Source of the DNA: an uncultured cyanobacterium
Lineage (GTDB): Bacteria; Cyanobacteriota; Cyanobacteriia; Cyanobacteriales; Cyanobacteriaceae
Direction: 5' to 3'
Assembly: GCA_963710605.1 (NCBI GenBank)
Contig: CAVQBA010000006.1
Coordinates: 544,001 to 608,000, forward strand
Length of the DNA: 64,000 bases
Positions 19,934 through 41,818 of this stretch are shown here, in pieces. Within the stretch, counting starts at the first letter, position 1. Each line of letters opens with the position of its first letter. Under the pieces are notes generated by a model. It worked only from the letters and a program-made list of their open reading frames with translations. It was not told the origin of the DNA and did no database searches. The position numbers were made by a program, and so were the translations under genes.

Positions 19934-20872
19934 TCAAGAATCAATTGTTTGACATTCAAGCACAAAAGAAACCTTTTCCATTTCGTCTTTATTTGGAAAA
20001 GAAGATTGAACACCTGTTTTACTCACCGATAAACTACTAGCAATCACACCATGTTTGACCGCTTCTTTTAAAGAATAACCCAAACTTAAACCCATAGTTA
20101 AACCACCATTAAAAGCATCTCCTGCCCCAACCGTATCTACTACTTTTAGCTTTGGTGCGGATACTAAAAATTGTTTTTGATTAGTTGCACAAAAAACTCC
20201 TTCGCTACCCATTGTAATAATTACTGTTTTTACCCCTTTATTTAATAACCACAAACTAGCTTTTTTAGCATCTTCAATATTATCAACAGTAAACCCAACT
20301 AACTGACTCACTTCGATCGTGTTAGGGGTAATAATATCTATTTTGGTATAAATATCTTCGGGTAGATCGACTACAGGAGCGGGATCTAAAATTACTTTAA
20401 CATTATATTGACGAGCTAAATCGATCGCTTTTATTACCGCCTCAAGAGGAATTTCTAATTGCAATAATAAGTAAGTGGATGTTGCTAAAACTTTTTCTAA
20501 ATTAGCTAAATCTGTATCATCAACATTACCATTAGCACCTGTAACGATAATAATCTGATTTTCGCCTGTTGTTTCTTCTACCGCAATCATTGCTATACCT
20601 GTAGATTGGTTAGTAGAGACTCGAACATTTTCAATATTGACTTGATTTTGTGCTAATTCATCTTTGAGTTGTTGCCCAAAACGATCGTTACCGACTCTAC
20701 CAATCAAACTTGTCGGGATACCTAAACGAGCAAGGGCGACTGCTTGATTCGCTCCTTTTCCTCCTCCTGTTGTCTGGAAAGAGTTTGCGGTTAATGTTTC
20801 TCCAGTTGTTGGTAAACGTTTAACTTGAACGGTTAAATCTAGATTGATGCTACCAAAGACGACTACGCTCAT
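19934..20872 (-). CDS. rbsK: Ribokinase
   Basis: GSINLD, GGKGANQA, DTVGAGDAF. Confidence 0.93.
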   Translation of the reverse strand: MSVVVFGSINLDLTVQVKRLPTTGETLTANSFQTTGGGKGANQAVALARLGIPTSLIGRVGNDRFGQQLKDELAQNQVNIENVRVSTNQSTGIAMIAVEETTGENQIIIVTGANGNVDDTDLANLEKVLATSTYLLLQLEIPLEAVIKAIDLARQYNVKVILDPAPVVDLPEDIYTKIDIITPNTIEVSQLVGFTVDNIEDAKKASLWLLNKGVKTVIITMGSEGVFCATNQKQFLVSAPKLKVVDTVGAGDAFNGGLTMGLSLGYSLKEAVKHGVIASSLSVSKTGVQSSFPNKDEMEKVSFVLECQTIDS

Positions 20873-21014
20873 AATTAATAATTAATAGTTCATACTTTAT
20901 ATAGTATTTGTTATGGTTAATTATCTACCAATCATAGGATGAGTAATAATACTATTCACCACAAACCTTAAAAAATTCATTCAGACTCAGTCGTAACCCA
21001 TCAAATTTCACATT

Positions 21015-21176
21015 TATAGTCTATCAAAATAAGAATGAGACAATTTAAAGATTCTTTCTTTGAGTTTAATTCATTAAACGTTATCTGTTAGCCTTGTCAA
21101 TTTATTGCAAGGCGGGTTTTATATTTTTCTTTCTACTATTCTTTATACTGTCTTAAAGTTAATTAAAACAACTATA
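21015..21176. mobile_element. TATA-flanked MITE, family A
   Basis: TATAGTCTATCAAAATAAGAATGAGACA...TGTCTTAAAG...ACTATA with an internal GCCTTG..CAAGGC hairpin. Confidence 0.65.
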
Positions 21177-21236
21177 TATTTTTTTGACATTAAATGTTGG
21201 GTTTCGCTTTTATTTTATCTATCGCTTGTATATTAA

Positions 21237-22016
21237 CTATTTGAAGGCTTAACCCAACCTACGAGTCTCGATCGCACTGATTCAGCTATTATTAGTCCGC
21301 ATACTACCATCAGGCATAATAGTTTCATAAAAAATGCAACCATTAAAGTAAGCACTTTTCCAATCTTTAGCTTCAATAAAATCCGTTCTAGTAAGGTTCG
21401 CACCATCGATAAAATCAGTTTGACCAATATAAGCTTTAACAAATTTGGCATCAGTCAAATTAGCTCCCCAAAAGTAAGCACCACTCAAATCAGCTCCCGT
21501 CAAGTCTGCCCCAGTAAGGTTAGCCCCTTGCAAATTACTTTGAGCCATGGAAACTTCTCTCAAGTTAGTAAAACTAAAATTGGTTTCATCCAAAGTCAAT
21601 TCGGACAAGTTAGACCTACTAAGGTTAGCATGGGTCAAATTACAACAATAGATAGGGTTGACAGAAAATTCGATTCCACTCAAATTGATTCCGCTGAGAT
21701 CGACTTCCATCAGTTCGCCAAACAGTTCTTCAATCCAAGAAAAATCTCGCTCCCCAGCAGCATATCTTCTGAGCAATTCTTCAACTTCCATAATTCAAAT
21801 TCTCAAATAATAAACCAACTTAATAATAAAGTAAATCGAATCTGGTCAACCCTTTTACCGCAAACCAACATCGACATCATCTATGAAATAAAAGACTTGC
21901 TTTCTGGACAACTAGCAGAAGTCACTATCACAGGTTTTGACAAAAATATCATATATACTAACTTTAACGTCGGCTGTTGGGTTTCGCTTTTGTTTTATGT
22001 ATCGTATGTATATTGA
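21237..22016 (+). other. Stop-free in-register antisense frame spanning pentapeptide gene 1 (possible fragment of a large exoprotein)
   Basis: No stop between TAA at 21234 and TGA at 22014; continues past the pentapeptide start as IWSTLLPQTNIDIIYEIKDLLSGQLAEVTITGFD. Confidence 0.6.
21282..21791 (-). CDS. Pentapeptide-repeat protein, cassette 1
   Basis: MEVEELLRRYAAGERDF N-cap, A(N/D)LxG repeats, TIMPDGS C-cap. Confidence 0.9.
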   Translation of the reverse strand: MEVEELLRRYAAGERDFSWIEELFGELMEVDLSGINLSGIEFSVNPIYCCNLTHANLSRSNLSELTLDETNFSFTNLREVSMAQSNLQGANLTGADLTGADLSGAYFWGANLTDAKFVKAYIGQTDFIDGANLTRTDFIEAKDWKSAYFNGCIFYETIMPDGSMRTNNS

Positions 22017-22874
22017 GATTTTCGTAGCTTCAACCGTTCCCTACAAAATCTCGATCGTACTGATTCAGCTATTATTAGTCCGCATACTACCATCAGGCAT
22101 AATAGTTTCGTAAAAAATACAATCTTCAAAACTAGCACTTTCCCAACCTTTAGCCCCAGTCAAATCAGCTCTCGTCAGATTAGCCCCATCAAGACTACAT
22201 TCAATGTAGGTGTTAATAAGTTTAGCATCGGTCAAGTTAGCATCCCAAAAATAAGCACCACCCAAATCAGCACCCGTCAAGTCTGCTCCAGTAAGGTTAG
22301 CCCCTTGCAAACTACTTTGAGCCATGGAAACTTCTCTCAAGTTAGTAAAACTAAAATTAGTTTCATCCAAAGTCAATTCGGACAAATTAGCTCCGCTGAG
22401 GTTAGCACGGGTAAAATTACAACAGCAGATAGGGTTGACATCAAATTCGAACTCAGTCAAATTAATTCCACTAAGATCGACTTCAATCAGTTCTCCAAAC
22501 AGTTCTTCAATCCAAGAAAAATCTCGCTCCCCAGCAGCATATCTTCTGAGCAATTCTTCAACTTCCATAATTCAAATCCTCAAATAATAAACCAACTTAA
22601 TAATAAAGTAAATCGAATCTGGTCAACCCTTTTACCTCAAACCAACATCGACATCACCTATGAAATAAAAGACTTACCATCTGGACGACTAGCGGAAGCC
22701 ACTACTATCACAGGTTTTGACAAAAATATCATATATACTAACTTTAACGTCGGCTGTTGGGTTTCGCTTTTATTTTATCTATCGTGTGTATATTGGGTTT
22801 TTCGTAGCTTAACCCAACCTATAAAATCTCGATCGTACTATTCATACCCTAATACCTCATACTCACAACCATGA
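22017..22874 (+). other. Stop-free in-register antisense frame spanning pentapeptide gene 2
   Basis: Same frame as 21237-22016, separated from it only by TGA 22014-16; continues as DLPSGRLAEATTITGFD. Confidence 0.6.
22065..22568 (-). CDS. Pentapeptide-repeat protein, cassette 2 (diverged paralogue)
   Basis: Same N- and C-caps as cassette 1, with variable repeat coils. Confidence 0.9.
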   Translation of the reverse strand: MEVEELLRRYAAGERDFSWIEELFGELIEVDLSGINLTEFEFDVNPICCCNFTRANLSGANLSELTLDETNFSFTNLREVSMAQSSLQGANLTGADLTGADLGGAYFWDANLTDAKLINTYIECSLDGANLTRADLTGAKGWESASFEDCIFYETIMPDGSMRTNNS

Positions 22875-23113
22875 CTACCATAATTATAACCACGAAGTGT
22901 TGTTCCCCCCTTCTGTAAGGGGAGGGGCTGTCATCTGAATTTACTTCAGATGCTTGTAAGCCCCGTGGGCTAGGGGGGATCGTTATTCCGATCGTCTCGA
23001 CAAGTAGATCCCCCTAAATCCCCCTTGTTTAAGGGGGACTTGAAATACTTAATGGTGACTTTGCGATCGGTAATAACACCATCCCTAATTACAGAAAAGA
23101 AGTAAATTAATTA

Positions 23114-23920
23114 TCAATTCTTACCATAGCTAAACTCAAACACATCTTCAATTACATCAACCCAACCTTGGGCTAAAGAAGCAAGAATACGATCGCCTTT
23201 TTCTTTACTTGCTACTGTTGCATCCCCTAATACACCAGTTTTACTTAAATCTTTGGTAATCCACGCAAAAGGTAGTTTTCCTTCCATCGATAACAAACTA
23301 TCATCACCGACTAAATCACGAGGATATTCTTTAACTGCCAAATCCATATTTACTCGATCGGGCAACAAAGCTAACATTAAACTAGTTTCCGCATCTCCTG
23401 CATGAATTCCTAATTCTTGTTCTTTTTCAGTTAACAATTCATTAGTAATATTCGGCACTCTCCAAGTAAAGAAAGGAAATACCGCCAATTCAGAAAACTG
23501 TTGGTGTAAATCTCTAGCGACAATTTCAATTATCTGTGGTTGCCCACCATGAGAATTCATTAAAATTAATTTCCGAAATCCTGCTTGATAAATACTAGTA
23601 GCTATTTCTGTGAGTAAAGAAAGTAGAGTTGTCGCCGATAAACTAATCGTACCAGGGAAGCCATCGTGTTCGTTCGATTTACCACAATAAAGTGTTGGTA
23701 AAGCAAATGCTGGTATTGTTTCGTCTAATAAACCTAAAGCTTTACCTAAAACACCCTGACTAATAGCCGAATCTACTACTAAAGGTAAATGATGACCGTG
23801 TTGTTCGATCGCACCAATAGGTTGAATAATAACTGTATTTTCTTTATCGGGCATGGTTTGGATTTGTTGCCATGTCAAATAAGCGTAATAACGATCGGGA
23901 GGAATAAAACCGTGAATCAT
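23114..23920 (-). CDS. Creatininase-family amidohydrolase
   Basis: GAIEQHGHHLP, NSHGG, HAGDAETS. Confidence 0.9.
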   Translation of the reverse strand: MIHGFIPPDRYYAYLTWQQIQTMPDKENTVIIQPIGAIEQHGHHLPLVVDSAISQGVLGKALGLLDETIPAFALPTLYCGKSNEHDGFPGTISLSATTLLSLLTEIATSIYQAGFRKLILMNSHGGQPQIIEIVARDLHQQFSELAVFPFFTWRVPNITNELLTEKEQELGIHAGDAETSLMLALLPDRVNMDLAVKEYPRDLVGDDSLLSMEGKLPFAWITKDLSKTGVLGDATVASKEKGDRILASLAQGWVDVIEDVFEFSYGKN

Positions 23921-41026: not shown

Positions 41027-41818
41027 TTAAAAAGGAGAGAACAACTGGAAAATAAACGGTACAATAGAACTAACCGCTTGCACAAAACCCGGACTACCTT
41101 GATTGCCTTTACTATCTTTGTTGTTTTCGTAGTCTTCACGGGCTTCTACCATTTGAATAAAACGGGTAGATAATAGATAACCATCGGAGTTGTTTTGTGT
41201 TTCAAAAAGGTTTTGTGCTGTTTGAGCGTCGCTAACAGCATTTTCAACTTGTCCGTAACGAGATTTGATGATACCTCTGGCTAAATATGCCGGTGCAAGT
41301 TTTGGCTCTAATTCGATCGCTTGATTATAATATGTAAGAGCTTGTGTATAGTTACCTTCTTTGTCTTCTTGCATCGCCCAAAGATAAAATTGTTCCGCTG
41401 AAGCGATATTATTTGGCATACCGATAGCCCCCTCAACATAAGCTTTACTCAAATCAGTATTAGTAATGATGACATTAGAAAGATAACTATTTCTTAAATC
41501 AGTATTGTTAAAAATTGCACCAGTCAAGTTTGCACCGGTTAAGTTTGCCCCGAAAAGCGATGTATTAGTTAAATTTGCCCCTGATAAATCTGCCCCTGTC
41601 AAATCCGCTCGACTCAAATTCGCACCTACAAGATTAGCACCTCGTAAATTCGCACTTTTTAAATTTATCATCACCAAACCTGCGTGACTTAAATCACAAT
41701 TTTCACAGTCTTTGGTTTGTAATACTTGATTCAAATGCTCAATATTTTCAGCTTTAGTGTAGCTAGGAAAGACTAAACTTAAAGACAATGACAAGCCGAT
41801 AAATGCTAATTTTTTCAT
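41027..41818 (-). CDS. Exported pentapeptide-repeat/TPR protein
   Basis: Signal peptide, CENC, ANL repeats, TPR YYNQAIELEP. Confidence 0.88.
   Translation of the reverse strand: MKKLAFIGLSLSLSLVFPSYTKAENIEHLNQVLQTKDCENCDLSHAGLVMINLKSANLRGANLVGANLSRADLTGADLSGANLTNTSLFGANLTGANLTGAIFNNTDLRNSYLSNVIITNTDLSKAYVEGAIGMPNNIASAEQFYLWAMQEDKEGNYTQALTYYNQAIELEPKLAPAYLARGIIKSRYGQVENAVSDAQTAQNLFETQNNSDGYLLSTRFIQMVEAREDYENNKDSKGNQGSPGFVQAVSSIVPFIFQLFSPF

Follow-up and report, generated by a model that had tools for sequence, protein, structure and literature searches.

Two tandem genes for pentapeptide-repeat proteins (PRPs), PRP-A and PRP-B, lie on the minus strand of a 64,000-nt stretch of DNA from an uncultured cyanobacterium (assembly GCA_963710605.1, contig CAVQBA010000006.1, positions 544,001 to 608,000; hereafter the window), and the strand opposite them stays open to translation, in the same codon register, across both genes. 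Is this open frame an accident of codon usage, or the trace of a second protein? An earlier interpretation made from the letters of the window (the sequence-only reading) took the two units for fragments of a larger plus-strand gene that hides a complete gene on its antisense strand. Comparison with homologous loci bears this out: in intact loci of other genomes a PRP gene is very probably nested, codon for codon, within a translated giant exoprotein gene, and the copies in the window are probably orphans of such loci whose plus frames are relics.

Codon usage of the pentapeptide-repeat genes

Direct-repeat analysis of the window places the genes in two tandem units of ~780 bp (21196-22840), each composed of a copy of a 63-nt inverted-repeat element, a complete minus-strand PRP gene and a tail of ~155 nt upstream of the PRP start codon. 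PRP-A contains 18 Leu codons (TTG 11, CTT 3, CTC 2, CTG 2) and 14 Ser codons, PRP-B 20 and 13, respectively, and TTA, CTA and TCA occur in neither gene. This is far beyond chance. Among 1613 ATG-initiated open reading frames (ORFs) of at least 250 aa from the 3.93-Mb genome (33% GC), TTA supplies 58.4% and CTA 9.1% of Leu codons and TCA 18.3% of Ser codons, the three jointly making up 8.5% of all codons, and just one of 3488 consecutive 170-codon stretches lacks all three. An ordinary PRP gene elsewhere in the window (41027-41818) uses TTA 14 times, CTA once and TCA three times, and has 18 stops in its in-register antisense frame. Because the three codons are missing from PRP-A and PRP-B, the in-register plus frame stays open from 21237 to 22871 with a single TGA, that is, one stop in 546 codons where 8.5% would be expected; this TGA (22014-22016) corresponds to TGG at the homologous triplet of the next unit (22794-22796). 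Codon counts, genome codon usage and the ORF scan therefore agree with the sequence-only reading on the missing codons, on TTA as the dominant Leu codon and on the single interrupted frame. Its further statement that the units differ in length by multiples of three holds for four of five direct-repeat families (777, 783, 780 and 780) and fails for the 22-nt family D5 (778).

The tail, the first PRP codons and the element recur at many places in the genome with 70-83% identity. We examined 25 such matches and, leaving out six with no ATG-initiated ORF of at least 90 aa near the expected start, recovered 19 PRP genes with common ends (M..EELLRRYxAGERDF ... TIMPDGS) and very different middles. 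Eleven have no in-register antisense stop, seven have one and one has two. Pooled (3237 codons), the 19 paralogues are depleted in TCA (0 observed, 43 expected), TTA (6, 192) and CTA (3, 30), but also in GCA (5, 60), ACA (9, 63), GTA (5, 37) and ATA (16, 44), and are enriched in GCT, ACT, TTG and GGA. Two-fold codons occur at genome usage (AAT 230 observed, 226 expected; GAA 171, 167; AAA 67, 67), which excludes the codon bias of a foreign donor, an explanation that the sequence-only reading had named as a possible refutation. Among all 45 PRP-like ORFs of the genome, TTA and CTA account for 3 of 212 Leu codons in the 13 with a recognizable tail and for 654 of 1124 in the other 32, which still include some family members with decayed tails.

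PRP-A and PRP-B match PF00805 at 95.7 and 90.9 bits (cut-off 20.2). Their best NCBIfam matches are HetL (NF047416, 88.6 bits against a cut-off of 260), covering the N-terminal non-repeat part (HetL model positions 1-138), and the Alr5209 family (NF052603, 81.2 against 125); since both scores fall under the cut-offs, the window PRPs are not members of either equivalog.

The plus-frame protein

The plus-frame tail (..IWSTLLPQT..EIKDLPSGQLAEATITGFD) is the N-terminal edge of a domain with an HExxH motif found in large cyanobacterial exoproteins, so the likening of its DLPxGQLAEATITGFD motif to giant secreted proteins was apt. The longest such frame in this genome, antisense to a PRP paralogue at C6:183405-183938, is open for 817 codons; past the PRP it runs through the tail sequence into ..DLPSGQLAEATITGFDSQGKPNAGIIKIDHDANGAGWFID...HEAAHLYGF.. 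and then a Big_9/cadherin domain. Of 2664 candidates, 188 proved homologous to the HExxH part (E <= 1e-3); all named homologues are cyanobacterial, and many homologues also carry PKD, cadherin or Endonuclease_NS (PF01223) domains. H112, E113 and H116 of the HExxH motif are invariant in an alignment of 45 sequences. The domain matches no Pfam or NCBIfam model; an AlphaFold2 model (mean pLDDT 58) gave no match to the PDB at E <= 0.001, the best being a weak one to leishmanolysin (1lml, E 3.3e-3, TM 0.32).

Homologues from elsewhere retain the imprint of the antisense gene. Five of nine foreign homologues (P0009, P0017, P0024, P0032 and P0051) have a long N-terminal or internal stretch with the five-residue (Q/K/E)(I/V)S period seen antisense to PRPs; three (P0007, P0033 and P0081) show at least ..SFSSSI.S.QF..H, the motif that lies antisense to the N-terminus of the PRP, and one (P0045) begins past that motif. 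P0024 comes from Anabaena sp. CCAP 1446/1C and P0081 from Chamaesiphon minutus.

Nested genes in other genomes

The usual order of the intact plus frame is Endonuclease_NS, a linker of ~120-190 codons, the HExxH (possibly leishmanolysin-like) domain and Ig/cadherin/PKD repeats. The complement of the linker, codon for codon, is a complete, acidic, HetL-like PRP gene with its own ATG and stop. In each of the first six loci retrieved, the exoprotein frame holds an antisense PRP ORF in the same register, and in a tblastn/HMM scan 26 of 29 loci have one directly upstream of the HExxH domain, its ATG lying 31-35 codons before the DLPxGQLAEA motif. The exceptions are L058, L059 (62% GC) and L064 (a partial match). 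The two features that the sequence-only reading had postulated, a larger plus-strand gene and large exoproteins with a PRP antisense in the same register, are thus both found. In L059 (G424:C49) the HExxH domain lies in a frame of 13403 codons that has no PRP antisense upstream.

Antisense stops were counted in 24 of the 26 PRP loci (L053 and L062 left out). In 23 the PRP has none, with TTA and CTA forming 17-52% of Leu codons in the exoprotein part of the same loci; per-locus probabilities of a zero count range from 6e-9 to 2e-2. Exoprotein frames that contain nested PRPs are of great length. That of G101 has 8564 codons, of which the 5897 read hold two nested PRPs; G582 has one of 6632, G380 has two of 4832+ and 3811, and others reach 10641 and 10783. 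At a locus in G166 (L024/L037, C27; PRP at L024:2068-3021) the nested ORF of 318 aa consists of two tandem PRP modules, each with its own EELLxRY..GER.F start motif and TIMPDG-like end, and has no antisense stops.

Of 301 genomes sampled across the phylum, five yielded the HExxH domain, as did 31 of 401 sampled within the order (13 of 142 genera); none of the 19 other genomes of the same family did.

Selection on the two frames

Substitutions identify the PRP as the frame that is conserved as a protein, because they fall mostly on PRP third positions. PRP-A and PRP-B differ at 14, 15 and 38 sites in PRP codon positions 1, 2 and 3, respectively, and among the codons that differ there are 22 whose change is silent in the PRP and four whose change is silent in the plus frame. 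Three orthologous pairs of nested PRPs from another genus, one member of which is nested in the 6632-codon frame, behave alike (12/9/33, 16/12/46 and 18/12/40), with 30-37 codon differences synonymous for the PRP and 7-8 for the plus frame.

What constrains the plus frame emerges from a comparison within the family. Some PRPs of the same family adjoin nuclease exoprotein genes with no overlap, and we compared 12 of these with 10 nested ones, some loci being close kin (Table 1). On the plus strand, TTA, CTA and TCA read as stops, GCA and ACA as Cys, and GTA and ATA as Tyr. The possible refutation that homologous PRPs carry antisense stops at the expected rate is therefore true of the non-nested PRPs only; the nested ones have none. 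Avoidance of both stops and Cys codons, confined to nested PRPs, is hard to explain unless the plus strand is translated within the exoprotein.

Table 1. Use of seven codons (observed/expected) in non-nested and nested PRPs of the same family.
Codon	Non-nested PRPs (12)	Nested PRPs (10)
TTA	94/77	0/44
CTA	54/47	0/25
TCA	9/27	0/15
GCA	59/77	3/44
ACA	31/33	0/19
GTA	12/22	7/18
ATA	22/17	6/18

The composition of the exoproteins fits this signature. Cys is absent from the 5897 aa read in G101 (L035) and occurs once in 4673 aa in G260 (L036), once in 6632 aa in G582 (L097+L098) and three times in 4832 aa and twice in 3811 aa in G380 (L099+L100). Tyr makes up ~3% of giant exoprotein frames outside the linkers and 0.3-1.1% inside them. 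Thus the PRP would avoid TTA/CTA/TCA, GCA/ACA and GTA/ATA because the plus frame is free of stops, nearly free of Cys and poor in Tyr. Alignment of the plus-frame segments is poor (25% mean column identity, no invariant column), and an AlphaFold2 model of the linker, in which a beta-helix was looked for, has a mean pLDDT of 39.5 and no secondary structure. Taken together, both frames appear to be under selection, the PRP as a protein and the plus frame against stop, Cys and Tyr codons, and the latter looks like a translated linker of nearly free sequence.

Two other readings of the codon data were considered. A set of modified-U34 tRNAs is known from E. coli, and avoidance of N-Y-A codons might reflect such tRNAs, but this was rejected, as the codons are used normally in the non-nested members of the family. 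That selection against antisense stops has continued after the duplication in the window gains no support from the window pair alone: there are no purine transitions at two-fold third positions of the pair, and the absence of TTG-to-TTA changes is consequently uninformative.

The nuclease domain as constant neighbour

In the giant frame of G101 (L035), Endonuclease_NS (PF01223) is matched twice (E 2.4e-37 and 1.4e-28), with ends ~100 nt and ~55 nt short of the two nested PRPs. The first PRP has the nuclease domain before it and, after it, a region other than the HExxH domain, which identifies the nuclease as the constant neighbour. Nuclease homology was found in the plus frame upstream of the PRP in 16 of 24 loci, including all 12 with at least 300 open codons available, and 12 nuclease segments share an invariant G-H in the DRGH motif. 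Nuclease profile matches occur in 117 of 301 genomes of the order. Among the best 30 nuclease loci a PRP lies within 1.5 kb downstream in 22: in 10 the nuclease frame reads through a nested PRP, in 10 the PRP is convergent, 630-1150 nt downstream and not overlapped, and in two it is downstream on the same strand. The eight loci with no PRP comprise one 655-codon frame and seven frames of 264-447 codons that resemble free-standing NucA genes.

This neighbourhood, judged from gene order, is the pattern of a toxin domain with its immunity gene, and we give even chances to the suggestion that the PRP confers immunity to the adjacent nuclease domain. Nested PRPs have low isoelectric points (pI 4.05-5.02) and are thus acidic. 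Complex prediction for a nuclease segment and a PRP (0.33, 0.01 and 0.45 in three runs, 0.23 for an unrelated-chain control) speaks neither for nor against binding.

Alternatively, the PRP might regulate or chaperone the exoprotein or act as its secretion adaptor, or it might have no relation to it, its gene being overprinted by chance. HetL-type PRPs have regulatory roles in heterocyst formation, which lends some weight to a regulator. PRPs also accompany type VI secretion effectors as accessory proteins, according to the available text of PMC10933656. However, the PRP stands immediately 3' of the nuclease in 22 of the best 30 loci, whatever comes after it and in three layouts, and none of the seven NucA-like loci of 264-447 codons has a PRP downstream. 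Moreover, a genome that keeps many diverse PRPs and no exoprotein nuclease presents the usual picture of orphan immunity genes. We therefore think a role other than immunity somewhat unlikely.

State of the cassettes in the window and its genome

The features of the two units are collected in Table 2. The units retain no nuclease remnant; some 50 codons of the HExxH domain are left, after which the inverted-repeat element replaces the homology. PRP-A begins with MEVEELLRRYAAGERDF and ends with ..TIMPDGSMRTNNS, and element copy 1 lies 23 nt past its stop. Plus open frame 1 passes antisense through PRP-A and continues across tail A and the greater part of element copy 2, and neither plus open frame of the window matches a Pfam family at E <= 0.1. 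Tail A, which on the minus strand doubles as the upstream region of PRP-A, is 70-83% identical in DNA to at least 20 other places in the genome and is continuous with full HExxH-domain frames at C6:183405 and C7:498661. The promoter-like site upstream of PRP-A has a twin upstream of PRP-B (22584-22612), but with three such sites found against 5.4 expected in shuffles there is no evidence of function. A search for Rfam-type RNA families in 20900-23100 returned none at E <= 1. The AT-rich spacer between the cassette pair and the next gene holds short G/C-rich palindromes (22875-23080; e.g. CCCCTTCTGTAAGGGGAGGGG and CCCCCTTGTTTAAGGGGGAC).

Table 2. Features of the two units, their flanks and the in-window control gene.
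Feature	Position	Strand	Basis or remark
Inverted-repeat element copy 1, 63 nt (GTTGGGTTTCGC ... AACCCAAC)	21196..21258		exact pattern match, repeat family D3
PRP-A, complete, 169 aa	21282..21791	-	ORF; PF00805 E 1.1e-27
Plus open frame 1, 259 codons	21237..22013	+	codon register shared with PRP-A
Tail A, remnant of first ~50 codons of exoprotein HExxH domain (NSNSQIINQLNNKVNRIWSTLLPQTNIDIIYEIKDLLSGQLAEVTITGFD)	21792..21945	+	
Promoter-like site TTTACT-17-TATTAT	21807..21835	-	upstream of PRP-A start; consensus match only
Element copy 2, degenerate right arm	21975..22041		repeat family D3, 72% identical to copy 1; holds TGA 22014-22016
PRP-B, complete, 167 aa, tandem paralogue of PRP-A	22065..22568	-	PF00805 E 3.3e-26
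Plus open frame 2, 285 codons	22017..22871	+	in register with PRP-B; crosses tail B and element copy 3
Tail B, second remnant of HExxH-domain start (..IWSTLLPQTNIDITYEIKDLPSGRLAEATTITGFD)	22569..22725	+	
Element copy 3	22756..22818		repeat family and pattern match
Ordinary PRP gene, 263 aa, signal-peptide-like N-terminus	41027..41818	-	in-window control
Sugar-kinase-like gene	19934-20872	-	flanks units; name from translation only
Gene on other flank of units	23114-23920	-	

The element is 63 nt long with 8-bp terminal inverted repeats (GTTGGGTT...AACCCAAC) and an AT-rich centre, and resembles a miniature mobile element. Its exact pattern occurs 27 times in the genome and a reversed control pattern not at all. 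An element arm lies within 400 nt 3' of the stop in 9 of the 19 PRP paralogues, compared with 0.008 expected, which ties the element to cassette borders. The counterpart of the element in G166 has a short loop and reads MLGFVPQPNLQ in one frame. Two identities were weighed for the element, and that of an integron attC site was rejected. By consensus such a site has its R'' box (RYYYAAC) 5' and its R' box (GTTRRRY) 3', whereas either strand of the element reads 5'-GTTGGGT...ACCCAAC-3', which puts the two boxes in reverse order. A stable terminator is unsupported, since folding of the element is weak, with z-scores of +0.16 to -2.66, and a terminator scan was empty at these sites. No sign of a diversity-generating retroelement or of an invertible segment arose, although no search was aimed at either.

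In the whole assembly of this genome (G000) we found no exoprotein-type nuclease domain and no intact giant exoprotein gene, the longest frame being that of 817 codons. Upstream of this frame (C6; L021 3771-5317) lie a beta-propeller piece of 444 codons and a stop-interrupted cadherin-like piece, fragments that point to a wider field of broken exoprotein genes in the genome. As the sequence-only reading had it, then, the PRP genes of the window are intact and the exoprotein is truncated, and the cassettes are probably orphans. The most economical interpretation of these remains would be a break-up, in this lineage, of giant multi-unit genes whose PRP genes survived intact, with relic open frames antisense to them.

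Alternatively, the cassettes could be silent donors, like the orphan toxin/immunity modules of Rhs or CDI loci, kept free of stops so that they can recombine into an expressed giant gene through their conserved flanks. At 33% GC, 11 of the 19 orphan PRPs with no antisense stop and seven more with one are suggestive, as are the flanks, 70-83% identical in DNA, and the arrays that cassettes form in the window, at C6:258-260 kb and at C7:498-500 kb; with an assembly completeness of 84.9%, a giant gene could be among the unassembled part. Yet the genome search just described found no recipient, several orphans already have one or two antisense stops, the window frame itself has the TGA, and flank conservation is equally expected from a former coding role together with the PRP promoter region. 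Silent donors are thus an improbable explanation of the window, for which the fragmentation of former giant genes remains our preferred one.

Could one of the two strands be non-coding?

The dual-coding interpretation of the intact loci competes with two simpler ones, in which one strand or the other is a by-product. The first holds that the open antisense frame follows from codon usage (through a foreign donor, a founder effect in the amplified unit or some translational preference among PRP genes) and that the plus frame is unselected. PRPs are internally repetitive, a founder unit such as GCT-AAT-TTG-ACT-GGA could spread its codons, and GCT, ACT, TTG and GGA are indeed enriched; in addition, only Leu and Ser codons give in-register antisense stops, and PRPs are hence predisposed to long antisense frames. 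Against this, the two-fold codons of the family match host usage exactly, which is at odds with a foreign donor, ordinary PRPs in the genome take TTA for about half of their Leu codons, and non-nested PRPs of the same family use TTA, CTA, GCA and ACA at expected rates where nested ones have almost none. The remaining depleted codons are exactly the ones read as Cys and Tyr on the plus strand, and Cys is nearly absent from the exoproteins. An origin in codon usage is accordingly very improbable. That the plus strand alone is real and the PRP ORF a shadow of a five-residue-periodic (Q/K)(I/V)S.. repeat domain, as the five-periodicity of the A(D/N)LXX antisense and the annotation of the long plus ORF by gene callers (e.g. 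the 788-aa P0003) might suggest, is hardly credible, given that substitutions fall on PRP third positions, mostly synonymous for the PRP and non-synonymous for the plus frame, that the PRP ATG and stop positions are conserved, with non-repeat end motifs (EELLxRYAAGERDF and TIMPDG) common to free-standing PRPs, that the PRP frame matches Pfam at E 1e-27 and the plus frame nothing, and that the plus-frame segment has 25% mean column identity, no invariant column and no modelled secondary structure.

Several points nevertheless weigh against dual coding in the intact loci or against the orphan account of the window. The case for dual coding is comparative throughout, and the loci in other genomes are related, so that their counts are not counts of independent events. 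No conserved plus-frame start codon was found in single-unit loci, and in the 6632-codon frame of G582 (C1:3865393-3885288) the first ATG is at codon 293. The low-confidence AlphaFold2 model of the linker is compatible with disorder without proving it, and because most analysed proteins are acidic, nuclease segments included (pI 4.2-6.1), the acidity of the PRPs says little in favour of DNA mimicry. In the window the plus frames lack the nuclease domain and the HExxH core and give no sign of present use. The sole PF01223 match in the genome is a standalone NucA-like gene of 253 aa (G000:C5:276186-276791, L066), although at 84.9% completeness an intact giant gene may be missing from the assembly. 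Finally, 11 of the 19 orphan PRPs keep no antisense stop despite the AT-rich genome; stop-free orphans could fit either recent breakage or continuing constraint, including use as exchangeable cassettes.

Two observations on these loci stand apart. The frame in G582 starts inside the antisense of a truncated PRP remnant. The standalone NucA-like nuclease has a lipoprotein-type signal peptide, and a small acidic ORF on the opposite strand nearby resembles the NuiA inhibitor, as far as its translation can be read.

Proposed history

With these reservations we favour the following account. The linker would be translated as an unstructured spacer of the exoprotein and would have to remain open and Cys-free. 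The nested PRP, which appears to be cytoplasmic, would serve as an immunity-type partner of the adjacent nuclease domain, plausibly as an inhibitor that mimics DNA. Nesting may go back to read-through of an exoprotein frame across a convergent PRP gene and on into the following unit. In the present genome the exoprotein frames would then have been broken up, partly at copies of the 63-nt element, and intact PRP genes with relic open antisense frames would be left as orphan immunity-like cassettes. We consider this account as a whole, orphan cassettes of a nested PRP/exoprotein junction, likely; the role in immunity, taken by itself, has even chances.

A bolder version, which we think unlikely, is that the antidote to a nuclease toxin is encoded antisense in the linker of the toxin polyprotein itself and that the stop-free orphan cassettes are still exchangeable with an expressed giant gene. 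If this were true, recombination could never separate the toxin module from its antidote, and, transcription being convergent, strong expression of the toxin and strong expression of the immunity protein would be alternative states of a cell.

Comparison with known systems

Antisense overlapping genes have been described as olg1 and olg2 of Pseudomonas aeruginosa and as pop, asa and nog1 of E. coli O157:H7 (PMC8850804, PMC7103648, PMC9927249). In these, as here, an ORF is wholly embedded opposite another coding gene and stop depletion in the second frame is the signature. Their embedded ORFs, however, are reported to be young and without a known family, conservation lying with the mother gene. 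In the present loci, by contrast, the embedded gene belongs to an old family, the PRPs, and is the more conserved frame, and the host frame belongs to a giant gene, in which it forms a nearly unconstrained linker; conservation of the pair extends over many genera, and its codon signature includes avoidance of one amino acid, Cys, in the second frame. In bacteria, long antisense overlapping genes are still a matter of dispute, and annotation pipelines discard them. The comparative evidence in this case is unusually clean: giant genes of at least 13 genera hold, nested codon for codon, a gene whose family is well known, its non-nested relatives form a built-in control, and the codon signature shows what the second frame needs, namely no stops and no Cys. 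The loci therefore offer a tractable system for how two proteins share one stretch of DNA. Gene callers probably miss nested PRP genes wherever the giant ORF is called.

MfpA, Qnr and AlbG are acidic, right-handed beta-helix PRPs proposed to mimic DNA and to protect a DNA-handling enzyme (PMC7980463, PMC8145042), and are a precedent for a PRP that blocks a DNA-binding site; they target gyrase, however, not nucleases, and the window PRPs score far under the Qnr and MfpA model cut-offs. The best NCBIfam matches, HetL and Alr5209 of Nostoc sp. PCC 7120, also stay under cut-off, and in the Alr5209 paper (PMC7337050) the word nuclease does not occur and no nuclease context is reported. In the literature outside subscription journals and supplementary files we found neither a PRP gene nested antisense in an exoprotein gene nor a PRP as nuclease immunity protein.

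A close parallel for the exoprotein is the Tox-NucA class of polymorphic toxins, whose partners are Imm36, Imm-SUKH and Imm-NTF2 (Zhang et al. 2012, PMC3482391); in the available text of that paper cyanobacteria are not listed for Tox-NucA and pentapeptide proteins do not occur. Both systems have large secreted multi-domain proteins with repeats, a peptidase domain (putative in the present loci) and a NucA-type nuclease, a small 3'-adjacent gene, and orphan cassettes or arrays. The nuclease domain expected of such a toxin is present in the giant frames of other genomes, though not in the window or its genome. The present loci differ in that the small gene encodes a PRP and is often on the opposite strand, that the toxin frame reads through this partner into a further unit, and that immunity is putative. 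A partner on the same strand, the usual layout in toxin systems, is seen here for 2 of 22 PRPs. An independent parallel of a PRP adjoining a nuclease toxin comes from YjbI-like PRP genes, which adjoin GH-E His-Me-finger toxin nucleases that have no annotated immunity gene (PMC5714182). Those pairs involve a different nuclease clade and other phyla, and in the available text no gene overlap is reported and immunity is not proposed for the PRP. The present arrangement has features of antisense overlapping genes and of modules of the toxin-immunity type, and it may point to an undescribed partner family for NucA-type nuclease toxins in cyanobacteria.

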